Positions 603-47,620 of a stretch of DNA of 48,639 nt are shown here, in pieces; position 1 is the first letter of the stretch, and each line of letters starts with the position of its first letter. The notes under the pieces are model-generated. The model was not told the DNA's origin, ran no database searches, and saw only the letters and a program-made list of their open reading frames with translations. The translations under genes and the position numbers were made by a program. The stretch is from IMG/VR virus record IMGVR_UViG_2778261184_000002, positions 1 to 48,639 of that record. One strand, given 5' to 3'. This DNA comes from a virus. Lineage: Duplodnaviria > Heunggongvirae > Uroviricota > Caudoviricetes.

Positions 603-1784
603 CACGTACTCTATAAACATCTTCTCAGCCTGTTCTTGTGGCGTTCCAGCCATGACAAGCGCATCAATGAACGCCTGCTTCTTCAGTGCGAACTGATCGG
701 CAAGGCGTTGCTGAAGTTCCTTATTTTTCTGTTTCTCACGTTGCAAGGCCGCTTCTTTTGCAGCCGCCCGTTTTTTCTGTGCGTCTGACAACTTTCTGGC
801 CCTGGTCAATTGGTCACGTAGCTTGTCGATCTTGCCGTTGTCCTTTGCCAGTTTTGTACTTAAAGCTGCCTGGCGCTTCTGATAGAGCCTCCATTCGCGC
901 TTGGCAGCGTCAACGTTTGTTTTACTGTTGCGATTGCGATTAAACTCCCTCTCGTCTTCTTTTGAGAAGTGTTTGGTTGTACGGCGGCGATCGTCACCAA
1001 ATGCAATTTGCGTTGCGGCCTTTTGTAACGCACGAGCAATACTCATTTGCCAACTAGCGGACTGTAACCGCGTCATTGAGTGGATCACGTGTTTACAGGC
1101 GACGCCTTGTAGCTTAGGGTTACGAACTTTTGGATAGGCGTATTCTTTTGGCGGTGCCAGGGCAAAGTTACCCGCAGTAGCGATGTAACGATACCAGTAT
1201 TGATGACGACCACAGTCACAATCGAAAGACACCCGCCCGGCGCACAGTGATTTAGTGATTTTCAGAGCTGATTTATCGTCTTCTGCGATGTCATCGACCA
1301 TCTGATCCCATTCTTCAAAGCGTATCCGGACGATATGGTGCTGGTGGACGGATATATCCGATGCTTCTACGCGGATATTAATCACGTTGTGGCGAAGAGA
1401 TACAGGTGTAGCTCTTTTGATACCAGATCCGTCATCCACGGCGTTATTTGCACGCTTAATATCGATTGCCTGGCTGGATGCCACCAGCTGGGCGTATGTG
1501 ATGCCAGCCGTCTTGCTGTCATATTTTTCGCGTGTTTTACTCCGTAGCTTTTCGAAACCTTTCAGGTCGTCTCGCGTGAAGAACGTGCCGCCTTTTTTCT
1601 TCCCTAACTTGAGAATATCTTCGGCGGATTTGTTCCTCAGTCTACCTGGCGTCAGCGTCCGGTGAGCTTGTCGGCGCTTACGGGTTTGTTCTTTCCTGAT
1701 AAGGTCGAATAAACGCGTGAAGTCCTTAGAGGACAGGCCGTCAGTGATATAGCGCCCGTCCTGGTTTTTCAGGAAATCAGGCAT
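591..1784 (-). CDS. SWIM-type zinc-finger protein with a long K/R/Q/E-rich C-terminal tail; function unknown
   Basis: 397-aa ORF; CxC-x(n)-CxH pattern (FDCDCGRHQYWY...GVACKHVIH); start overlaps stop of upstream ORF (ATGCCTGA coupling). Confidence 0.5.
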   Translation of the reverse strand: MPDFLKNQDGRYITDGLSSKDFTRLFDLIRKEQTRKRRQAHRTLTPGRLRNKSAEDILKLGKKKGGTFFTRDDLKGFEKLRSKTREKYDSKTAGITYAQLVASSQAIDIKRANNAVDDGSGIKRATPVSLRHNVINIRVEASDISVHQHHIVRIRFEEWDQMVDDIAEDDKSALKITKSLCAGRVSFDCDCGRHQYWYRYIATAGNFALAPPKEYAYPKVRNPKLQGVACKHVIHSMTRLQSASWQMSIARALQKAATQIAFGDDRRRTTKHFSKEDEREFNRNRNSKTNVDAAKREWRLYQKRQAALSTKLAKDNGKIDKLRDQLTRARKLSDAQKKRAAAKEAALQREKQKNKELQQRLADQFALKKQAFIDALVMAGTPQEQAEKMFIEYVKKA

Positions 1785-2106
1785 TTTCTATCTCCGGTTC
1801 CGCGCTTGCGTAATCACGGATCTTGTTCCTCAGCCATGCCACATCAGGAAGAGTTAACGTGGTCCCTGCGGGCATTTCTTCCATTTCTGACTCATGGCCC
1901 ACCAGCACCCGGAATACCCAGCGCAAATCTGCATTGCCATACGCCCTGTAGGCTGCAAGGTCTGAACGATATACTTCATCAATCTTTATCGTGTACTGGA
2001 AATTATCAGAGTGATACTCCGATACCCGCTTAATCATTTCCTGGTGAAACAGCGCACGAAAAATATCGTCTTCAATGTACCTATCGTCGAGTCTGCTATA
2101 GCCCAT
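1777..2106 (-). CDS. Hypothetical protein, translationally coupled to the SWIM protein gene
   Basis: 109-aa ORF overlapping downstream gene by 8 nt; no recognisable motif. Confidence 0.45.
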   Translation of the reverse strand: MGYSRLDDRYIEDDIFRALFHQEMIKRVSEYHSDNFQYTIKIDEVYRSDLAAYRAYGNADLRWVFRVLVGHESEMEEMPAGTTLTLPDVAWLRNKIRDYASAEPEIENA

Positions 2107-2298
2107 AACAAAGCCTCTCAGTCATAACCTGGGGGAAACTGTATGCAGGGTGTGAAATGCGAGAAACAGACAGGCCACCAGTTCAGGGGGATGTGGTTCA
2201 TAAATCCCCTCACTGGTGGCAAGTGACTTTCATTAATCTTTATGCGGGGCCAGCTTCATTTGCTGGCATTAGATTAAAAATTAAACGGAGTGAATGAC

Positions 2299-2433
2299 AT
2301 GGATGTTATTCTAGAATTGTTAAAGCTTATTGATCTGTTTATGAACGCCTCATTGACCACTCAAATACTGGCGTCAATATTTTTGTTACTCTTCTACCTG
2401 GTATTGAGGGAGTTAACAAAGCTACTAATGTGA
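2299..2433 (+). CDS. Candidate 44-aa hydrophobic peptide (MDVILELLKLIDLFMNASLTTQILASIFLLLFYLVLRELTKLLM)
   Basis: ATG 2299 preceded by GGAG; single predicted TM helix; AT-rich; abuts the 3' end of the convergent 217-aa gene. Too short for the ORF track. Confidence 0.25.
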   Translation: MDVILELLKLIDLFMNASLTTQILASIFLLLFYLVLRELTKLLM

Positions 2434-3087
2434 TCAAAGTATCACGGTATCTTCATCAACTTCTTTCCCAGTCAGTGACTTTGGCTGGGAGGTGCCTGCT
2501 TTAACTTTTTCATGCCCAATAATGGACAGGAACGAAGCGAGTATGCCTGTTTTTTGCTCTTTCTCGACTGTACCGATCATCTGCTCTACGTAATCCGCAC
2601 TGGCAACGTTGTGGTATACGGTCGCGTAGCAACACAGGATCATCAAAATATGCTCCGGCCTGATATCCTGCCAGTTCACCCGGTAGACTTCTTCTCCGTT
2701 ACCATTGTATTCGGTATCAACGATAGAGTCGGGGATTTCGAAAGCACCTTTGTTATTTTGCGGCAGGGATAATAGTTTCTGGAGTTTTAACTCTCTGTAT
2801 CTTTCCATCCCGACGATGATTGCTGCTCTACCATCGGCATGACGGGTCTTGAGAGTCACCTGACTTGCTCCGGTGCCAGCGGAGATCGTTGGCGTAATTT
2901 CGTCTACCAGTACCTTAAATTTGCTTTTCCGCAGGGCTGCTATAGCTGGAGGAATTTTTTGCTTTTGCTCCAATGCTGACGCGGGAAGGGGTTTTACTTC
3001 GTTAATAATGAGAGCACCGTCTTTCAGTATTGCAGTGAGCATTTGAGGCTTGCTGGTGGTCAGGCTGAATATTGCGATCTTTTCCAT
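2434..3087 (-). CDS. Hypothetical protein (217 aa from the internal ATG)
   Basis: Track ORF 2434..3129; ATG at 3087 has a strong RBS (GGAGGAAGG) and the upstream 14 codons overlap a terminator-like hairpin. Confidence 0.5.
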   Translation of the reverse strand: MEKIAIFSLTTSKPQMLTAILKDGALIINEVKPLPASALEQKQKIPPAIAALRKSKFKVLVDEITPTISAGTGASQVTLKTRHADGRAAIIVGMERYRELKLQKLLSLPQNNKGAFEIPDSIVDTEYNGNGEEVYRVNWQDIRPEHILMILCCYATVYHNVASADYVEQMIGTVEKEQKTGILASFLSIIGHEKVKAGTSQPKSLTGKEVDEDTVIL

Positions 3088-3368
3088 TGTCCTTCCTCCA
3101 CGGATGACGGATACAAAAAAAGGCCGCACATGGCGGCCTGCTTTGGCGTTATGACTCCCTACCGCGCTTCGGCTGAAAGTTAATCGTCAAAAGAACCTTC
3201 AACGGGAGCCGTTAGCGCGATGGATTATGTGCAGTTTGTTATTTCCAGAATAGTGTCAATAGTCATTTGCTATTTTTTTTGTAAACGATTTGGTGCTTAT
3301 CAAAAAAACAGAGTGGTTAGTTATTATTATTGGGTTGTTGGTCTTGATTTGTGGTGAAAGGTTGAAAA

Positions 3369-4244
3369 GTGAGCAAAAACATATTTCCCAATCGTATTAT
3401 TAAAAAGTTATTCCGATTCAAATTACTGAAGACTGTTGGCGTTGCTCTTCTTCTGTCAAGTCATTCTGCGCTCGCGGATTATGGAAGAAACGCGGTTATA
3501 TCATGGGCTAATGAATACCAGAGCCAACATGGCGCAATGAGCCTTTACTATGAATACAACAGATACGGAGTTGATCCACAAGTGTATCTTATTCGTGAAA
3601 TTAATCGTGCGTGGCAATCTGGGGTGGTAGCCGCTCAACGTGGGCGAGTGATTAATGACGATGAAGCCTATGAGTATGGGTTGCGTCGGATACAGAGGCT
3701 TCGAATCAGCCAGGCGCTGGGGAATGATGTTACGCTATCCCTGACTAATCTGTGGGTTAAAGCGTTGCATGATGGCTGGAACTATGGAAATGCCAACAAT
3801 GGCAGTGTTACACAATCTTCAACGGCCTCTGCTGCAAGTAATAGCGCGCCAACGTTTTCCTGTAAGGTTGACGTAACATACCAAGGGAAGCGTAGTCATT
3901 ATATGGATGAAGCCGGGGCGTGGGATCAGGTAATTACAGACTATGGGACTTATTTCTCGTGGGATTTACCACGTGGCAACCGGGGTAATAGTACCGGGCA
4001 AGATGCATTTAGCGGAATGGATGAGACTCAACCAGTTCTGAACAATAAGCTGATACGCAAAGAGACAGAAAAGGATGGTAGCACGGTCGATGAATTTCGC
4101 ACTGAGGTTAGTTATGGCAGCGACCAGCCAGTTCATAAGTTTGTGTATGCTCGTCGCATAAAACCGAATGGTATTCGTGAATATTATGTTACTGATTTAA
4201 CGGACAAACGTGCGTTTATGTTCCTGAATTGTCAGCAGGACTAG
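3369..4244 (+). CDS. Secreted/periplasmic hypothetical protein
   Basis: 291-aa ORF, GTG start, N-terminal signal-peptide-like segment (LLKTVGVALLLSSHSALA-DYG). Confidence 0.5.
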   Translation: MSKNIFPNRIIKKLFRFKLLKTVGVALLLSSHSALADYGRNAVISWANEYQSQHGAMSLYYEYNRYGVDPQVYLIREINRAWQSGVVAAQRGRVINDDEAYEYGLRRIQRLRISQALGNDVTLSLTNLWVKALHDGWNYGNANNGSVTQSSTASAASNSAPTFSCKVDVTYQGKRSHYMDEAGAWDQVITDYGTYFSWDLPRGNRGNSTGQDAFSGMDETQPVLNNKLIRKETEKDGSTVDEFRTEVSYGSDQPVHKFVYARRIKPNGIREYYVTDLTDKRAFMFLNCQQD

Positions 4245-4714: not shown

Positions 4715-4898
4715 AATGGCAGCCTCCTTTTGCTAATTTAAGGAGCTACCGCGTGAGGTTCCAATCTCAATGGCGGTAGCACTGACTGGGTTGGAACTAC
4801 CGGCGCAAAAGGGAACCGGCCTGCCTTTCGGCAGCCCAGCCAGCACTACCATTGATCTCTGAGCTAAACGCTACGTATGGCTGTGCGATGGCATGACA

Positions 4899-4921
4899 CA
4901 AAAAAAGACGCTTTCGGCGTC
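4899..4921 (-). terminator. Rho-independent terminator (minus strand)
   Basis: GACGC-tttcg-GCGTC hairpin followed on the minus strand by T7. Confidence 0.5.
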
Positions 4922-5028
4922 TGTGTCGCCTTTTGCATTATCCGGGGTTCCAATCCCGGCACCCGTTTTTCTAAGGTGCCGTAGAAATATACCCCACGAT
5001 AATGCCAGGGCGCAACTGTGTGTTTTCT

Positions 5029-8945: not shown

Positions 8946-9625
8946 TCACCGTTAACGACCAGGCGTTATATAGCCGTATTGATGGTTCAGGATACAGAAA
9001 CATATGGGTTGTTGGTGATTTGCACGGTTGCTACACCCTGCTTATGAATGAACTCCATCGTGTGGATTTTGACCCGGCGCAGGATTTACTGATATCAGTC
9101 GGCGACCTTATCGATCGCGGCACTGAAAATGTCGAATGCCTGGAGTTATTGCAAATGCCCTGGTTCCGGGCTGTCATGGGTAACCATGAGCGGTTGATGA
9201 TCGATGCGTTAAGCCCAGCTGGAAACGTGAATAACTGGCTAATGAATGGCGGTCAGTGGTTCTTTATGCTGGATAGTGATAAGGAAGTTTTAGCCAGGGC
9301 GCTGGTGGAGCTGGTAAGGCAATTGCCTCATATCATTGAGCTGAACACCGGGCAGGAGACTATTGTCATTGCTCATGCTGACTATCCGGATAGAGAGTAT
9401 CAGTTCGGTAAGGCTGTGCCGCTTTTCAATGTCATCTGGTCGCGCGACCGTGTTAGTGATTCGATAGATGGCATCGGTGAAGAAATTACAGGTGCAGATC
9501 GATTTATCTTCGGACACACCCCGGCTAAAAGCCCAAAAGCATTCTGGAACCAGCATTATATCGATACTGGTGCTGTATTTTGCGGAAACCTGACGCTAAT
9601 GCAGGTGAAGGGAGGGCAACCGTAA
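8942..9625 (+). CDS. Ser/Thr protein phosphatase (lambda NinI/ORF221-like metallophosphoesterase)
   Basis: GDLHG, GDLIDRG, GNHE, and GHTP metallophosphatase motifs in order; 227 aa. Confidence 0.85.
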
Positions 9626-18828: not shown

Positions 18829-19585
18829 CTGCCACTTCCTTAACTTCTTCTTTGGCCTGTTCTGCAATCGCCGCACGGCATTTCGCCCTGGCTGTAGCGA
18901 TTGCTTCAGCTCGCACATCGTCTGGAATCGTTGACGTGATATACATATCCAGTTCTTCGGCACGGAATACTGTTTGGTCCAGATATTCGCGTAGCATCCA
19001 GGTAAATTCGAAATCACACGCGATAATCTCTGCGCTACCTTCTGCACCATTTGGGAAATGAATAAATGCCTGTTTAGCCAAACCGATAACACGACATGCG
19101 GTTGCCAAAACAGCGACAACCAGGTTTACATTTTCACACGCTACGGGCTGATTAACGCCGGAGATTACTCCATTTAACTGTCGGTTATATGGAAGGTAGT
19201 TTGAGATGCGTTCTACGCGCCATGTGCCAGTCAGGCTGCCATTTTTAAATATAATTGGTGTAACGGATAGCCCAAGCTCGCGTATAAGTCGTTGCGCTAT
19301 AGCAGGATCATTAAACAGGTCTAATGCTACACATTCGAAAGACTGCGCAAGGGCAAACAGTTCTTCCAGAGAGTAGTCTTTGCCCCTGGCGGTGATGTAA
19401 CGACGAACGCCGCTGTCTGCATCACTCCATATAGCTACGCCATGCTCTTCATTCAGCTCTTCATTAAAGCCGAGATACGTCATGATAGTGCGTTCAATCG
19501 TGTCAAACGGCAGTGACATGTCGGCGTTAACAGCCACCAGCAGGCCATTACGCAAGCGGTATTGAATTGTTTTAGTGCTTTCCAT
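18818..19585 (-). CDS. Hypothetical protein
   Basis: 255-aa ORF; stop overlaps downstream start. Confidence 0.45.
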   Translation of the reverse strand: MESTKTIQYRLRNGLLVAVNADMSLPFDTIERTIMTYLGFNEELNEEHGVAIWSDADSGVRRYITARGKDYSLEELFALAQSFECVALDLFNDPAIAQRLIRELGLSVTPIIFKNGSLTGTWRVERISNYLPYNRQLNGVISGVNQPVACENVNLVVAVLATACRVIGLAKQAFIHFPNGAEGSAEIIACDFEFTWMLREYLDQTVFRAEELDMYITSTIPDDVRAEAIATARAKCRAAIAEQAKEEVKEVADGD

Positions 19586-19591
19586 GTCAAA

Positions 19592-20254
19592 TCACTCCAC
19601 AACAAACCAGTCACAGGCCAGCAGGTCGCCAACTGAAGGCACCCACGGAACAACTACACCTTGTGCATTTTTTAAGGCGAAATAAGCACCATACGGAACG
19701 AGGTCGCCGGGGAAATATCCCTTAATGGCTTCCATTCGTGCCGGGTACTGTCCTTCAGGAACCAGCCAGCAGAATTGGTCTTCGCCGTTCCACCCGCGTC
19801 GAGCAACTTTCTTGCCATCCTTCATCCACATCAGCGCGTCAGAAAAGTCGGCTGCTTCAAGGTCGATTTCTTCTTGTAGAGTAGCGATACCGCCAGCAGA
19901 AATAGTTACGTCCCTGGCTGTAATGAATGTCACCCCATTGTGACCTTCAATGCTGAGCGATACCCCATTTTCGGAGGCGTCGTTAACCCGGCTATAGCAT
20001 TTTTCAAATGCTTTCTCTGGCACATAGACCAGATAACCATTTTCAGCAGTGACGAGATATCCTCCTATTTGCGGTCGGAACTTTTCCAAGAACACACCAT
20101 CAACACGAAGCGTCATTCCTTTTGGCTCCACGACTTCGATGCTGCCAAAAATGGGCGCATAAGCTTTGCCGACAATAACAATATCTTTGATTTTCGATGC
20201 CCGAATGATGCTGTGGCATTTGTATTTGGGGAACACCTGAAAAGTGCTGGCCAT
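19592..20254 (-). CDS. Two-domain protein: unknown N-terminal domain fused to C-terminal DUF2829-like domain
   Basis: C-terminal KDGKKVARRGWNGEDQFCWL...DLLACDWFVVE. Confidence 0.5.
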   Translation of the reverse strand: MASTFQVFPKYKCHSIIRASKIKDIVIVGKAYAPIFGSIEVVEPKGMTLRVDGVFLEKFRPQIGGYLVTAENGYLVYVPEKAFEKCYSRVNDASENGVSLSIEGHNGVTFITARDVTISAGGIATLQEEIDLEAADFSDALMWMKDGKKVARRGWNGEDQFCWLVPEGQYPARMEAIKGYFPGDLVPYGAYFALKNAQGVVVPWVPSVGDLLACDWFVVE

Positions 20255-27435: not shown

Positions 27436-27513
27436 TAATCCCCCAGGCAGGAAATGACCGAGGGGATGATAATGAGAATGTTATTTCTGTATAGACTGGC
27501 AAAAAGTTGGTTA

Positions 27514-27543: not shown

Positions 27544-27936
27544 CTACCAGCGATATAAGCGAACGACGTGTTTTACCTTAGCGATCCACTTACCACGTGA
27601 GTTATTAATTACGGCCTGCGCCACCTTTAAGCTGACTTCAAAATCAGCCTTACGACCATCAGAATCCACCAGCGTTGCACCGTCTATTTCCGGCAGGCTT
27701 AAATAATCCTGTTCTACCTCTAATGGCATTGACGGCTCTCTGAATGGTGTCAATTGCCGAGCTTCCCAGATAAAGCGAACTCTCAATCCCCTATAAGCCA
27801 TTACCATGTAGCCTGTTATCGTGCTCTTATGGCCTGCCTCAGTACGCGCAGCATTACACGATACAATCTTACAGGTGACGATATTCCACTCCACATTGGA
27901 GACTTCGTGAATGCTTAATTTTGTTGTCTCGTACAT
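27544..27936 (-). CDS. Hypothetical protein
   Basis: 130-aa ORF; start overlaps upstream stop. Confidence 0.45.
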   Translation of the reverse strand: MYETTKLSIHEVSNVEWNIVTCKIVSCNAARTEAGHKSTITGYMVMAYRGLRVRFIWEARQLTPFREPSMPLEVEQDYLSLPEIDGATLVDSDGRKADFEVSLKVAQAVINNSRGKWIAKVKHVVRLYRW

Positions 27937-28964: not shown

Positions 28965-29040
28965 TGGTGGCCCCTACCGGATTTGAACCGATGACCGTGC
29001 GATTATGAGTCGCCTGCTCTAACCACTGAGCTAAGGGGCC
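28965..29040 (-). tRNA. tRNA-Ile (anticodon CAU, lysidine-type ileX-like)
   Basis: GGCCCCTTAGCTCAGTGGTTAGAGCAGGCGACTCATAATCGC...GGTTCAAATCC...GGGGCCACCA; clean cloverleaf, encoded CCA. Confidence 0.9.
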
Positions 29041-29482
29041 AATTAGTTTTTATTTTCGACGTCTGAGATTCTTCGTAACTTGTTCTATTCCGTAGACGAT
29101 CACAAGTAGAAACAGCAAAGACCATCCAGGGTTCTTATCGATATACGTCCAAAAATCCATCATTAGTTCCTGTGTTCACCTTACAGCACTGCCACTGAAA
29201 CCAACTATCCGAACAGTAGTTGTCACTCAATAGACGTGACGTATTTATTAGGTTGCGGTGCCGGGTGCCTCCCGGTGCCTGGCGAAGGTTGCACGCCAGG
29301 CGGGTGAGTATCCACAGAAGGCCGACTGTCAGTCTCAACCTTGACCCGCGTGCGCTTAGCCGCATTCACCGCAATGGTAAGAGCACTTGGCTGGCTGGGC
29401 GGCGATGATGCCTGTACGCATTTGGTGATCCGGTTCTGCTTCCGGCATTCGCTTAATTAGCCAAATACTCTTAACGTTGCGC

Positions 29483-29569
29483 TGGCGGAGAGTAATGGAA
29501 TCGAACCATCATCGCTTGCGCAATGGGACGGTTTTCAAGACCGCTTGAGCACCATGCTCCCTACTCTCC
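29483..29569 (-). tRNA. tRNA-Ser (anticodon UGA), class II with long variable arm
   Basis: GGAGAGT...CGGTCTTGAAAACCG anticodon arm, T-arm GATGGTTCGATTCCATT, acceptor ACTCTCC-G-CCA. Confidence 0.85.
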
Positions 29570-29714
29570 GGCCGTTGTGGTGGCCGGTACTGAATCTCCG
29601 GCATACGGTGCAGCCAATTAGGACTACGGACGATCACCGCTCGCGAAAGGGAAGGTTTGCGGCCGCATTTCCCTAACATCCAAGAAAGCTATCGCATCAG
29701 TCTGCGAATCCACC

Positions 29715-29806
29715 ACAACGTTGAGAACACTGGTTGTCACGCTGCAACGCAACATTTATTCGTAGATTGGGATATGACCCCGTTACGTCAGTGTTCTCAA
29801 CGTTGT
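29715..29806. repeat. Perfect 18-bp inverted repeat (ACAACGTTGAGAACACTG / CAGTGTTCTCAACGTTGT) with 56-bp loop
   Basis: Arms 29715-29732 and 29789-29806, inside the tRNA cluster. Confidence 0.8.
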
Positions 29807-30034
29807 AGTACCGGTTACGGTTCCGGCCAGGCCTCTTCCTCAACGGGGTATTCTCCATACGGACTACCGTTTATTGGTCGTTCCTGCGGTTTATGTTGTG
29901 AAGCCAGATGCTTATCTTCTGGTTGCTTCAAAGAGCTGCACTTCATCACAACGGTAAGGGTACTTCGTAGGGATTCGAACCCTCTGCCAAGCACGGCGAT
30001 CTCCGACGTCGCAAAATACCCTTACCTGTTGTGT

Positions 30035-30110
30035 TGGTGCCGATTAACGGACTCGAACCGCTGACATCCTGCTTACAAGGCAGGCGCTCTACCAACTGAG
30101 CTAAACCGGC
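30035..30110 (-). tRNA. tRNA-Thr (anticodon UGU)
   Basis: GCCGGTTTAGCTCAGTTGGTAGAGCGCCTGCCTTGTAAGCAGG...GGTTCGAGTCC...ATCGGCACCA. Confidence 0.9.
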
Positions 30111-30112
30111 AT

Positions 30113-30189
30113 TGGCGATGGTGGGTGGATTCGAACCACCGACCGACAGCTTAGAAGGCTGCTGCTCTATCCTACTGAGCTACACCATC
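30113..30189 (-). tRNA. tRNA-Arg (anticodon UCU; reads rare AGA/AGG)
   Basis: GATGGTGTAGCTCAGTAGGATAGAGCAGCAGCCTTCTAAGCTGT...GGTGGTTCGAATCCACC-CACCATC-G-CCA. Confidence 0.9.
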
Positions 30190-30693: not shown

Positions 30694-30772
30694 CAAGAAA
30701 GAAGCCGACTGCCTGAGCTGGATTCACTTTCAAATGCCCGCAGAAAGGGAACACAAGTCGGCTTCTTTCTTG
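30694..30772. repeat. Perfect 17-bp inverted repeat (CAAGAAAGAAGCCGACT / AGTCGGCTTCTTTCTTG) with 45-bp loop
   Basis: Arms 30694-30710 and 30756-30772 in ORF-free DNA downstream of the tRNA cluster. Confidence 0.8.
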
Positions 30773-31256
30773 ATGCGGCACTCTCTCCGCCCGTCACCGC
30801 TCTGTCTCGGTTGTCGCGTTTGCCACGCCAGCCGTAACGAGGTTTAAAGTCTTTGCACGTTTCCATCACTCGACTGCCGTCTGTGGCTGTTCGTTGCAGC
30901 GGGGGTGCCTCCCCCTGGGGATATCCCCGGCCTTACCCCATTCTTTCAAGACACAATGCAAGGCCGCATCCGCATAGGTGCATTACCGCAACATTAAGGA
31001 GACTTAGGGCAAAAGGTAATCGCCACAAAAAAATCCCTATGCCTCCTTAATGTTGAGGATGTGCATTGATGATGATTCGATGCGGCGAGTCCCGTTACTC
31101 TCTGCCGGACCATCATCAATGAACATCTTAAAAAGACCTTCCGTGGCTCAACATGTCTTGTCGTTTACTCCGTAAAGTGCTCTCTCTGAAACCACTTTAC
31201 GCACTAAACCTGCTGAACTTTGGCTTGCTCGGTGCCAAAGCGAGTCCCTGTATGCA

Positions 31257-31273
31257 TGTAATTTTCTAACACT
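31257..31273 (-). promoter_or_regulatory. Operator-like motif copy (TGTTAGAAAATTACA, minus strand)
   Basis: Consensus match in ORF-free region. Confidence 0.4.
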
Positions 31274-31421
31274 TTAATTTGTTATTTGCTGGTGGGCGAA
31301 CAACAACCAATAAGTGACTATCAAGCCCAGCAAGCGAAATGTGGCAACGCTCCACCAGCAAGGAAAATTCTAAGTTAAGTTACTCTCACAATCAATATGT
31401 TCGTTTGGTGAAATTAGATTT

Positions 31422-31438
31422 CTAACACATTATTTCCC
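31422..31438 (-). promoter_or_regulatory. Operator-like motif copy (TGTTAGAAATCTAAT, minus strand), internally palindromic
   Basis: Overlaps stop codon of ORF 31430..32650. Confidence 0.4.
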
Positions 31439-32650
31439 ATAAAGATCTTCTACGCCCCCATTCTTCTTGTCCCATTCGTTAGCCCACACCCGGCAGGCAT
31501 CAATAATTTCTTGACGACGGTCGCCCTGCATAAAGGGGATGCTTTCATGAAAACTACTTGGGATACAGGCCACGCTGAATACGGTATCAAACGCAGTCTG
31601 TTTGATAGCTTCCAACGTCTCTGGGCGCATTTTCAATTCATCGATCGGCGCATCCTTAGAGTCCATAATCCGGCGATGCAGGCGCGGGAAATCAGTCTCC
31701 AGGTACGCCATAATTTTATCTGCCAGGCATTCGTCTATATCGGTATTCCAGTCCGTTTCGAAGCCGGGCAGGCGATAGTAAAGCGGCGTTCCCCATACTG
31801 ATGGGATCACATCCATCGTCAGCAGGCGGTTGGTTCTAATTTGTTGATGGTAATTAGCCGTCAACAGAGCTTCACCACGCTGACCAGTCTCCGCAACCAG
31901 ACCATGCGGGTACTCATGGATATAGGCAATAGCATCCACCCCGTCATACATGAGCGGGAATGTCTCTGGCCTTTGTCCCATACCACAAGCGCGGTTCAGA
32001 TCATGACCAAGCTGTGAACACTCTCGTTTCAGCGTTTCAATAATGTTCTGCGCTGCTGCTAACTTTTTACGCAGTGTGACACCTTCGCCTTGATACTTAA
32101 TGCACTGCTGATTCAGCTCTGTTAAACGCTCTTTTAGTTCCCGACGCTCTCTTTTCAGCGCACGGTTATCCTTCTCCGCAACATCCAGTCGTTTTGACAG
32201 ACTGGCTGGATAGTCTTTTTTGTAACGACTCAAATCGGCTTCTGCGGATTTGCGCAGTGTGTTTGCCTGTTCAAGACGCGCTTCCAGATTGCCGATCTCA
32301 CTACGCATATTCGCGGCAAATTGATTAACAGCATTGCCAAGACTTTCAACTGTCGCTGATACGCCTGTGACTTGTGAAAAACGGATCAAGCCATCATTAA
32401 CGGCTTGTTGATATTCCTCAAACTGATCCACCAGCTTGTTGTAATCAACCGTCCCTTCCTCAAGTAGCTGGTTGATCTCCGCGACCAGGTTATCAGTAGT
32501 GGCAATGACGCTCTCATGTAGCCGTCTAGACAGGTCATCCCCCGGATTCCGCTTTTGAATAAGGGCGATCTGTGTCCGCAGCGTTTCAATCGCGGCTGAG
32601 ATGATTTCCAGATTAGAAGTATCAGTTTGTTGACTCATTGCAGTTCCCAT
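31430..32650 (-). CDS. Coiled-coil protein with C-terminal globular domain; function unknown
   Basis: 406-aa ORF (alternative start ATG 32638); heptad-rich N-terminal 220 aa; operator-like motif directly upstream. Confidence 0.5.
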   Translation of the reverse strand: MGTAMSQQTDTSNLEIISAAIETLRTQIALIQKRNPGDDLSRRLHESVIATTDNLVAEINQLLEEGTVDYNKLVDQFEEYQQAVNDGLIRFSQVTGVSATVESLGNAVNQFAANMRSEIGNLEARLEQANTLRKSAEADLSRYKKDYPASLSKRLDVAEKDNRALKRERRELKERLTELNQQCIKYQGEGVTLRKKLAAAQNIIETLKRECSQLGHDLNRACGMGQRPETFPLMYDGVDAIAYIHEYPHGLVAETGQRGEALLTANYHQQIRTNRLLTMDVIPSVWGTPLYYRLPGFETDWNTDIDECLADKIMAYLETDFPRLHRRIMDSKDAPIDELKMRPETLEAIKQTAFDTVFSVACIPSSFHESIPFMQGDRRQEIIDACRVWANEWDKKNGGVEDLYGK

Positions 32651-41467: not shown

Positions 41468-41560
41468 AGGATTTCCCCCTCTAAACCGTAAAAAATTCCG
41501 CTATGCGGTACGGTTGAGAGGGTATGGAGAATGTTATTTTCAGGGGGACGATACTACCGT

Positions 41561-41574
41561 CAAAATCACATACT
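41561..41574 (+). promoter_or_regulatory. Candidate late-promoter element CAAAATCACATACT
   Basis: 44 bp upstream of CHAP-hydrolase ATG; near-identical element (CAAATCACATACT) 41 bp upstream of the portal-like gene on the minus strand (47578-47590). Confidence 0.3.
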
Positions 41575-41618
41575 CCCCATAGTTTGCCTACTTATTAACC
41601 CATGACCGGGAGAAAAAT

Positions 41619-43267: not shown

Positions 43268-43400
43268 TTACGGCCTCACTAACAGGTTTAACAACCTGCT
43301 ACCCGCTGTCAAACAGGTGGCAGGACGTGACAGGGTTGACAGACTGGCGTTAGTGAAACCAGCAGGCCGAAGCCTCCCCATCACGCCCCACCATAATTCG
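43268..43400 (-). ncRNA. Candidate c4-like antisense/structured RNA region upstream of icd
   Basis: Nested inverted repeats (CCTCACTAAC/GTTAGTGAAA; CTGTCAA/TTGACAG; CAGGTGG) between operator-like site and icd start. Confidence 0.3.
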
Positions 43401-43594
43401 GGCGTAACGCGGTTTACGGACACAAAAATACCGCAATATCGGAAATCTGCGGTTGTCCGCACTAACATTCAGGCTGTCAAACCTGGTCGCAGAATTTGCT
43501 ACGACGGCATGAATATAAGCCTGAAAACATGGAAGATCAACTAAAAATTTCAGCAATGGATGACTTCAGTCGATGATGCAGATCATACATTCCG

Positions 43595-47536: not shown

Positions 47537-47620
47537 GAATCACCGCGAATTGTTTCCAGTTTCGCGGCAGCATAATCAGTATGTGATTTGATAGGAGAGT
47601 TTTATTGGTGCTGTTAATGA

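Follow-up and report, generated by a model that had tools for sequence, protein, structure and literature searches.

The late promoters of phage P1, as annotated in its GenBank record (NC_005856), are defined by a 9-nt '-22 region', a gap of 4 nt and a -10 element, a definition that we adopted here, and they depend on the late activator Lpa. P1 also encodes small membrane proteins that belong to its lytic cycle, namely the accessory holins LydC and LydA and the pinholin LydD (PMC9025707). Here we examine a 44-residue open reading frame (ORF) at positions 2299..2433 on the plus strand of IMG/VR record IMGVR_UViG_2778261184_000002, a phage genome whose whole analysed stretch of 48,639 nucleotides is referred to below as the window. 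We hold, with moderate confidence and from comparison of related genomes, that this ORF is a real membrane-peptide gene, that it lies under a P1-type late promoter which would be active only with a suitable Lpa, and that its product would serve as a membrane-active accessory.

The locus can be compared with four groups of described systems. Its putative promoter is like the P1 late promoters (LPmat, LPs, LPsit, LP26 and others, NC_005856) in having an AAGTnACTT box, a 4-nt spacer, a -10 of the TAnnnT form and no -35, but unlike them it is found in a D6-like genome whose Lpa and other late boxes differ, and it would drive a monocistronic 44-residue ORF that faces a late operon. Like P1 lydC, which is non-essential, the ORF is monocistronic and has upstream of it a late-promoter motif that belongs to the 'other' type; unlike LydC, LydA and LydD, which have 84-109 residues and two predicted transmembrane helices, its product has 44 residues, a single transmembrane helix and no homology to these proteins, and the gene is not linked to endolysin, lydA or lydB genes. 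The third group comprises the type I toxins Hok/Gef, TisB, DinQ, ZorO, Ldr, Ibs and Fst, with which the ORF shares a length below 60 residues, a Leu/Ile-rich composition, a transmembrane or amphipathic helix, carriage on a plasmid and AT-rich DNA. The fourth is formed by morons and cargo hotspots, the latter being known to hold defence and toxin-antitoxin genes in P2/P4-like elements; here the likeness lies in a low-GC (guanine-plus-cytosine) insert of opposite orientation, placed between conserved late genes and subject to presence/absence and replacement, including by higBA. Morons usually carry a constitutive promoter, whereas the only recognisable promoter of this ORF is of an activator-dependent kind. 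The locus is a functionally uncharacterised member of the small phage membrane proteins.

By sequence identity and gene order, the window is a D6-like phage-plasmid of the P1 family. Over bases 1700-3259 it shares 98.4% identity with Escherichia phage D6, a plasmid prophage of the P1 family, where the corresponding genes follow in the order gene 25, gene 26 (for the baseplate wedge), orf76, orf77, mat (for maturation control) and a simB-like gene. The 44-residue ORF is D6 orf77, which lies between the baseplate gene 26 and mat, is annotated as "hypothetical protein" and is the sole content of the orphan family PHROG 38362. It extends from an ATG at 2299 to a TGA at 2431-2433, encodes the peptide MDVILELLKLIDLFMNASLTTQILASIFLLLFYLVLRELTKLLM, and is preceded by a Shine-Dalgarno GGAG (2287..2290, plus strand) 8 nt 5' of the ATG; this element reads GGAG in most variants of the D6 type, a weaker GGA in the hig-type alleles introduced below, and is degenerate in the E. 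marmotae lineage. The ORF listing reaches further 5' to a GTG at 2290 (47 residues) that overlaps the GGAG, and ATG 2299 is the start common to all alleles. To the left, the insert that carries the ORF is flanked by the homologue of P1 gene 26 (1777..2106, minus strand, assigned by homology), and to the right the ORF converges with a 217-residue homologue of P1 mat (2434..3087, minus strand), such that its stop abuts the reverse-strand stop of mat (2434-2436) at the junction TGA/TCA (2431-2436), an arrangement retained in every lineage examined. An earlier note on this DNA had described exactly such an AT-rich frame with a GGAG ribosome-binding site, convergent with the 217-residue gene and sharing its end, and all of these features are present in the sequence, the GC content being 34.8% in the ORF and 48.0% across the window. 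The same note had called the ORF unannotated, which fits the incomplete gene tables of PLSDB, where no entry for it was found, but not D6, in which orf77 is annotated as hypothetical, nor GenBank, in which names for homologues exist and include 'hypothetical protein' and 'membrane protein', nor the gene callers that predict it.

When the 327-nt spacer between the flanking genes was shuffled and ATG ORFs of at least 44 codons were scored, one arose in 13.6% of the shuffles, and the case for a gene must therefore come from comparison with relatives. For this purpose we compared the interval between mat and gene 26 in D6, in six plasmids and in 31 viral contigs retrieved with the mat protein. The ORF is intact in 35 of the 37 loci that bear an insert between mat and gene 26; in one exception (L006), a record of poor annotation quality, the ORF has several indels of the frameshift type, and in the other (L030) different cargo occupies its place. 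A further locus beyond these 37 (L029, IMGVR_UViG_2526164631_000025) keeps the ORF, and there an insertion sequence (IS) element sits precisely at the start codon. This element is ~1.3 kb long, contains two IS-type transposase ORFs, lies at the equivalent of window 2299-2304 and duplicates ATGGAT, thereby splitting the ORF from its promoter and Shine-Dalgarno.

Two allele types of the ORF occur, a D6 type beginning MDVILELLKLIDLFMNASL and a hig type beginning MNIFNKLIDLLNKFISASL. They differ at 40-45 of 135 nt (~30% of the DNA), nearly all of these differences falling within the first 24 codons, and they share start, length and stop with zero indels or stop codons between them. Polar residues are found at positions 2, 5/6, 9, 12/13 and 16 in both types, so that an amphipathic pattern is kept. 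Nei-Gojobori counts over three independent pairs, assessed with a binomial P, gave 29 synonymous and 16 nonsynonymous differences (Sd and Nd) in frame +0, with a ratio of nonsynonymous to synonymous proportions (pN/pS) of 0.17 and P=4e-9; the ratios in frames +1, +2 and -2 were 0.7-2.0, without the selection signal of frame +0, and the antisense frames contain many stops. Because the substitutions are mostly synonymous in frame +0 alone and two alleles ~30% diverged keep the frame, the comparison indicates that the ORF is translated and under purifying selection.

These data bear directly on the alternative that the ORF is untranslated, the region being conserved for a regulatory or RNA function (for instance as a terminator, as a promoter or in antisense control of mat or gene 26) and the frame being incidental. 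Such a view would account for the non-coding part of the module being even more conserved than the synonymous sites of the ORF, and it can draw on the frequency with which an ORF of this length arises by chance. Its difficulty is that the substitutions are codon-periodic in frame +0 alone, 31 of the 65 variable sites being at third codon positions, and that the diverged alleles preserve start, length, stop and the periodicity of polar residues without an indel or a stop; we regard it as scarcely credible.

The gene is widespread within a narrow group of elements. Two word-indexed searches of 5.8 billion proteins found no relatives of the peptide beyond the two alleles of D6-like elements, and an exhaustive HMMER profile search of 1.84 billion representatives likewise returned nothing beyond them. 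Public assemblies contain the exact window peptide in 1243 blocks, as called by gene callers, and all eight contexts among the matches listed show the arrangement gene 26 / ORF / mat. A scan of genome contigs with a mat alignment yielded three loci only and added nothing. At hig-type loci, some annotators start the ORF at an in-frame upstream ATG (63 residues); this codon lies at or before the predicted transcription start, which favours the shared 44-residue frame.

By prediction, the 44-residue product of the ORF resides in the inner membrane and combines an amphipathic helix at its N-terminus with a single transmembrane helix. Among 19-residue Kyte-Doolittle windows, the highest score, 2.07, falls on residues 18-36, giving one predicted transmembrane segment, and residues 1-17 would form a strongly amphipathic helix. 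In keeping with this, an AlphaFold2 model contains helices at residues 2-16 and 19-43, with a predicted local distance difference test score (pLDDT) of 93. The C-terminal tail, RELTKLLM, has a net charge of +1 and is not the highly charged hydrophilic tail of the holin kind. The earlier note's proposal of a small membrane-peptide gene is upheld by the selection on the frame and by these predictions; its description of a single-helix peptide is roughly right, the transmembrane helix (18-36) being joined by an amphipathic one at the N-terminus. Scans of both alleles against Pfam, NCBIfam and PADLOC (E up to 1-10) gave no match, and no holin family was matched in Pfam, NCBIfam, PADLOC and PHROGs scans. 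Neither a sequence search of the PDB nor a Foldseek comparison of the AlphaFold2 model with viral structures produced a meaningful match, and Rfam searched over the region at E up to 10 returned only sub-threshold snoRNA and isrK noise. We also considered whether the ORF is a homologue of P1 pmgL, which has the same position relative to gene 26 and shares the late box, and rejected this, PmgL being an unrelated, soluble-looking, cysteine-rich (CxxC) protein of 81 residues.

Upstream of the ORF, at 2221..2239 on the plus strand, lies a predicted P1-type Lpa-dependent late promoter that consists of the -22 box AAGTGACTT (2221-2229), the spacer TCAT and the -10 TAATCT (2234-2239), and from which transcription is inferred to start near 2246, ~7 nt past the -10. 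The site fits the AAGTnACTT -22 box, the 4-nt spacer and the TAnnnT -10, and the D6-type alleles have no acceptable -35. As a training set we used the eight P1 late promoters that are annotated with a 9+4+6 layout, namely LPmat (AAGTGACTT-cagt-CAGAAT), LPpro (AAGTGACTA-gtgt-TAAATT), LPlyz (AAGTGATTT-gcat-TATCCT), LPdar (AAGTTACTT-tgca-TACCAT), LPs (AAGTTACTT-atct-TACAAT), LPsit and LP26 (both AAATGACTA-nnnn-TAGAAT) and LPpac (ATGTGACTT-tcgt-TACCCT); in the same notation, the window site reads AAGTGACTT-tcat-TAATCT, and its copy in D6 has the 13-mer TGACAAGTGACTT in common with LPmat. A matrix built from this set with the spacer columns included was over-fitted, with shuffles equalling the site, and counts of the exact pattern were used instead. 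Exact matches to AAGT[G/T]ACTT-N4-TAnnnT number one in the window, none in 100 shuffles and one in the 91-kb D6 genome. Conservation points the same way: a 27-nt block directly to the right of the upstream hairpin, ACAAGTGACTTTCATTAATCTTTATGC, is unchanged in 21 of 22 distinct D6-type spacer variants, the window's own block differing by a G in place of the first A, two bases ahead of the -22 box, and positions 2221-2239 are unchanged in all 22. The first 18-21 nt of the block are retained in hig-type alleles, where the adjoining sequence is unalignable.

Transcription from near 2246 would place a predicted stem-loop, GCCAGC-7 nt-GCUGGC (2249..2267, plus strand), at the 5' end of a 53-nt leader. 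Among the D6-type variants the stem CCAGC/GCUGG is constant and the loop varies in length, and hig-type alleles have a longer stem, CCAGCUC/GAGCUGG; the stem-loop may act in stability of the mRNA. A short fold of the predicted 5' untranslated region (2246-2320) leaves the Shine-Dalgarno unpaired, and the D6-type allele forms a small hairpin around the AUG that has no hig-type counterpart. As a separate observation, the promoter region of hig-type loci, ATTGACTGTCAACAAGTGACTT-tcat-TAATCT (L005 1379-1409 and L007 1376-1406), resembles the composite Pmat/LPmat of P1, ATTGACAACTGACAAGTGACTT-cagt-CAGAAT (L040 2664-2696), the likeness extending to a TTGAC -35 at the same 19-nt distance, and a palindrome in this hig-type region, TTGACTGTCAA, may be the higBA operator.

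A consensus scan and a matrix scan for sigma-70 promoters upstream of the ORF found poor candidates, none of which is conserved between alleles. The best sigma-70 candidate, TTGACC-17-AATATT (2353-2381), was rejected; it lies inside the ORF and is lost in hig-type alleles. These scans matter for the main conventional rival, according to which the ORF is a moron expressed in the lysogen at a constitutive low level from a weak sigma-70 promoter, encoding a harmless small membrane protein that, for example, mediates superinfection exclusion or modulates a host membrane protein, with the P1-type box being irrelevant. Several features of the locus are of the kind expected of a moron: the low GC content, the orientation opposite to the flanking late genes, the presence/absence polymorphism and the flanking hairpin. 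In addition, a simB-like superimmunity gene lies nearby (3369-4244), and hig-type loci have a TTGACT 19 nt upstream of the -10, like the composite Pmat/LPmat of P1. However, D6-type alleles have no acceptable -35, the sigma-70 candidates are poor and unconserved, and the invariant P1-type box with its exact spacing is left unexplained. We therefore consider constitutive expression of a moron to be unlikely.

Comparison of loci indicates that the ORF is part of an accessory module of ~270 bp (2167-2433) between mat and gene 26, and that this spacer is a cargo hotspot in D6-like phage-plasmids, being empty, or holding the module, the module with higBA, or other toxin-antitoxin-like genes. Carriers of the module are D6-like phage-plasmids of Escherichia, Shigella and Salmonella, with spacers of 327-331 nt. 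It is absent from Enterobacter hormaechei (L008) and from one further locus (L036), in which the mat-gene 26 spacer is 59 nt long and contains an intrinsic terminator only. A higBA type II toxin-antitoxin operon stands between the ORF module and gene 26 in five loci (L005, L007, L026, L028 and L034), and in L030 the module is replaced by a second toxin-antitoxin-like pair. Presence/absence and replacement between conserved flanks are thus joined by deviant composition, the GC content of the module being 35-40% compared with 48% for the window, as is characteristic of moron or accessory cargo.

Directly upstream of the late promoter is a strong interrupted hairpin (2174..2220, both strands; -29 to -33 kcal/mol, z-score ~-3.1 on both strands), which is followed by U-rich tracts on both strands. 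Homology between variants breaks at 2166/2167, to the left of the hairpin, and at 2220, to its right. In hig-type loci, the canonical terminator hairpin of higA holds the same position relative to gene 26, and for this reason we consider the hairpin to be, in all likelihood, a terminator that acts in both directions, or an insulator; on the minus strand it would end mat and antisense transcripts, and on the plus strand it would block read-through. D6 orf76 (27 residues; window 2144-2227, plus strand) overlaps this hairpin, and its frame is lost in the Shigella dysenteriae lineage (L003); it is probably not a gene. A hairpin at 2466-2490, at the 3' end of mat, was rejected as a terminator of the ORF because it has no proper U-run and is kept only in part in other lineages. 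Within the leader of mat, between its D6-type promoter (3244-3224) and its start (3087), there is also a terminator-like hairpin followed by a T7 run (3121-3139, minus strand; AGGCCGCCATGTGCGGCCT TTTTTTG) that could be an attenuator or an antitermination target.

A scan for minus-strand terminators between 2433 and 2220 found none, so mat transcripts must cross the whole ORF in antisense, and the antisense RNA over the ORF is predicted to be a 3' extension of the mat mRNA and not a dedicated antitoxin gene. For a dedicated antisense RNA, the minus strand offers only weak promoters at relative positions that differ by allele type, in scans that may miss weak ones. The earlier note suggested a type I toxin layout; in such a toxin-antitoxin module the mRNA of a membrane toxin would be neutralized by an antisense RNA from the opposite strand, and the pair would stabilize the plasmid prophage. 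Several points favor the idea. The peptide is small and hydrophobic (44 residues with a transmembrane segment), satisfies the size and hydrophobicity expected of such toxins and is encoded on a plasmid prophage; the slot that it occupies holds addiction cassettes; nucleotide-level constraint extends over the whole module, its non-coding part included; the hypervariable 5' half of the gene recalls the specificity regions of the Ibs/Sib type; and the mat transcript would supply a full-length antisense RNA. Nevertheless, unlike known type I toxins, the peptide has no match to a toxin family, no known antitoxin RNA family is matched and no antisense promoter is conserved between alleles, the region that could end an antisense RNA being replaced by higB in hig-type loci. 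The Shine-Dalgarno is not sequestered, as it is unpaired in the predicted folds. Furthermore, we take mat to be repressed in the lysogen, as is expected from P1, so that the antisense RNA would be missing at the very time that an antitoxin is required. The P1 record (NC_005856) annotates a C1 operator, Omat, at mat. Finally, the invariant upstream element is of the P1 late-promoter type and not constitutive, which argues for control by a phage transcription activator rather than by an RNA antitoxin. The type I layout is thus not borne out, and we judge it very unlikely; the peptide itself may have a toxin-like, membrane-damaging activity.

The significance of a P1-type promoter at this locus depends on the promoters that D6-like phages otherwise use. 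Alignment of the regions upstream of D6 late operons revealed a different motif, AAAT(C/A)ACA (AAATCACA), followed by 7 nt and a -10 of the form nAnnnT. D6 contains nine sites with a perfect box, compared with ~0.17 expected by our own estimate, and 17 sites with at most one mismatch, compared with 5.7 in shuffles. All nine perfect sites are in spacers upstream of named genes, mostly of late function; they precede the orf16 lysozyme gene, prt, ddrB/darA, R/S, pmgB/sit, gene 23, gene 7 and mat, and boxes with one mismatch are found upstream of D6 lydA, darB and upfC. The homologous operons in P1 carry the P1 box AAGTnACTT-N4 where D6 carries the D6-type box, which suggests that Lpa and its site have co-evolved. 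In the window, the predicted D6-type promoter of mat, AAATAACA-aactgca-CATAAT (3224..3244, minus strand), corresponds to AAATCACA-aactgca-CATAAT at 72100-72120 of D6, and further D6-type motifs stand before lpa (27466..27486, minus strand), darB (41519..41539, minus strand), a lysozyme gene (41563..41583, plus strand) and prt (47569..47589, minus strand). Gene 26 has a probable D6-type promoter, ATTTCACA-ccctgca-TACAGT (2138..2158, minus strand), which matches at six of eight box positions, keeps the 7-nt spacing and the -10, and is within a segment that is unchanged in all variants, the hig type included. From these motifs, D6-like phages appear to use a late-promoter motif of their own that is distinct from that of P1.

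The window also encodes a protein of the Lpa family (PF25716; 27043-27435) that is 31% identical to P1 Lpa. Directly upstream of lpa lies a 130-residue ORF of equal length (27544-27936, minus strand; D6 orf5, PHROG 7004), which we considered as a second Lpa paralogue that might account for the P1-type box, and rejected, as it has no Lpa family match; in a single pairwise comparison it aligns weakly (28% identity, 71 residues, E=0.002) with the N-terminal portion of P1 Lpa.

Taken together, the reading that we favor is that of a gene that would be silent in the lysogen and transcribed only when an Lpa-type late activator that recognizes the P1-type box is present. The module would then be ordered as a bidirectional-terminator hairpin, the P1-type promoter, a 5' stem-loop, the Shine-Dalgarno and the ORF, set against the stop of mat, and convergent transcription of mat would oppose expression of the ORF. 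The peptide would insert into the inner membrane and perturb it, most likely as a membrane-active accessory of the lytic phase that modulates the timing of lysis in a holin-like manner or collapses the membrane potential; a role in lysis or in abortive infection may follow from this activity. Should the resident Lpa fire the promoter, the product would be an ordinary, if odd, late micro-protein.

A number of observations weigh against this reading. A late gene that runs head-on into mat, which is also late, looks self-defeating, and the lysis genes are found elsewhere (in D6, the lydA/lydB homologues at 30706-31478 and the lysozyme gene at 19271-19756), the ORF being unlinked to them. The window's Lpa is only 31% identical to that of P1, and all other recognizable late operons of D6-like phages carry AAATCACA-N7-nAnnnT and not the P1 box. 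The position-weight-matrix score of the window variant, with its G for A, is 15.0 and is below the 95th percentile of shuffles, 17.1; because this score is unexceptional, the case for the promoter rests on the exact match to the consensus, on its place directly 5' of a selected ORF and on its conservation. No convincing terminator was found downstream of the ORF, and the searches described above returned no homologue of known function for the peptide. Lastly, the conservation of the module lends itself to two interpretations. Including its non-coding part, it is 90-96% identical between lineages (single segments of 2107-2433: 89-98%), whereas in the same lineages the DNA of mat and gene 26 is only 74-86% identical, and the synonymous divergence (pS) is 0.22-0.25 in the ORF compared with 0.53-0.69 in the flanking genes. 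This could reflect either constraint at the nucleotide level, imposed by the promoter, the hairpins and the antisense overlap, or recent recombinational spread.

The mismatch between the promoter and the resident late boxes raises a further alternative, a special case of the favored reading, which is that the ORF eavesdrops on other phages. The Lpa of an infecting or co-resident P1-type phage would fire the promoter, and the peptide would damage the membrane and thereby abort the infection or spoil the competitor, with mat transcription silencing the ORF during the resident phage's own lytic growth. There is conceptual precedent for a resident gene with the promoter type of a different phage in the promoters of satellite P4 that are activated by P2 Ogr and in lactococcal AbiD1, which is induced by a phage product; in the present case, the promoter mismatch would permit such cross-activation. 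Of P1-type late promoters without a mismatch, the site is the sole one in D6 and in the window, whose recognizable native late operons all carry AAATCACA-N7; the slot in which it lies is a hotspot for cargo, elsewhere toxin-antitoxin cassettes; and the layout antisense to mat fits self-silencing.

The P1 side supplies a possible counterpart. Within the 79 kb of P1 that were scanned there is one perfect D6-type motif, an exact match to the pattern, AAATCACA-aagtaca-TACCGT (NC_005856 31571-31591, minus strand; L041 26571-26591), and it lies 32 nt upstream of lydC. Two diverged P1-like phages, SJ46 and vB_EcoM-813R1, also have the motif, which aligns with the promoter that precedes lydA in D6. 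The lydC gene is monocistronic and non-essential, encodes a holin-like protein that contributes to P1 lysis timing and is lethal when cloned (PMC9025707), and the literature gives it only a putative early promoter. Each of the two groups of phages therefore keeps one perfect copy of the other's box before a small membrane-protein gene, which could be read as a reciprocal 'promoter eavesdropping' exclusion, with a P1 box on the D6-like ORF and a D6-type box on the P1-like lydC. Against this, the argument is made wholly from sequence motifs; LPhot and LPpmgL show P1 Lpa to be tolerant of changes in box and spacing, and a D6-type Lpa may accept the P1 box too; the lydC motif, being homologous in position to the promoter before D6 lydA, could be a relic of common ancestry; and lydC serves the lysis timing of P1 itself. 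We consider the eavesdropping defence improbable, and the reciprocal scheme a shade more so.

If such cross-wiring works, it would give phage-plasmids that circulate together a simple and novel means of sensing and sabotaging one another, and if it fails, the locus would still be a clean example of a conserved lytic-phase micro-protein. In either event, an ORF that is present in well over a thousand public assemblies of Escherichia, Shigella and Salmonella, was previously unstudied and is skipped by most annotations gains a concrete, if predicted, control logic in the form of an activator-dependent late promoter. Beyond the locus itself, the comparison brings out distinct late-promoter boxes in D6-like and P1-like phage-plasmids.

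Several further features of the window were noted in the course of this work. At 31367-31385 (minus strand), the sequence GAGTAACTT-aact-TAGAAT resembles a P1-type late promoter, with a counterpart at 9022-9040 (minus strand) of D6, AGGTAACTT-aaca-TAGAAT; it has one mismatch in the box, which is within chance expectation, and faces a tRNA cluster over ~1.2 kb of unannotated DNA. Four tRNA genes (Met, Ser, Thr and Arg-tct) are present at 28965-30189 on the minus strand (D6 counterpart, L043 6084-7850). The RefSeq record of D6 puts the homologous tRNAs on the plus strand and omits tRNA-Met; ARAGORN assigns every one of these genes to the minus strand. At the place of the D6 tRNA-Asn(gtt), the window carries tRNA-Arg(tct). 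Finally, two antisense immunity RNAs of the C4 type, each close to an icd/ant-like region, occur in the window, together with a c4 a1b1 target element and an isrK-like small RNA; the coordinates of these C4, a1b1 and isrK-like RNAs are 4769-4856, 43313-43398, 43466-43518 and 4901-4979, all on the minus strand and all above the Rfam gathering thresholds.

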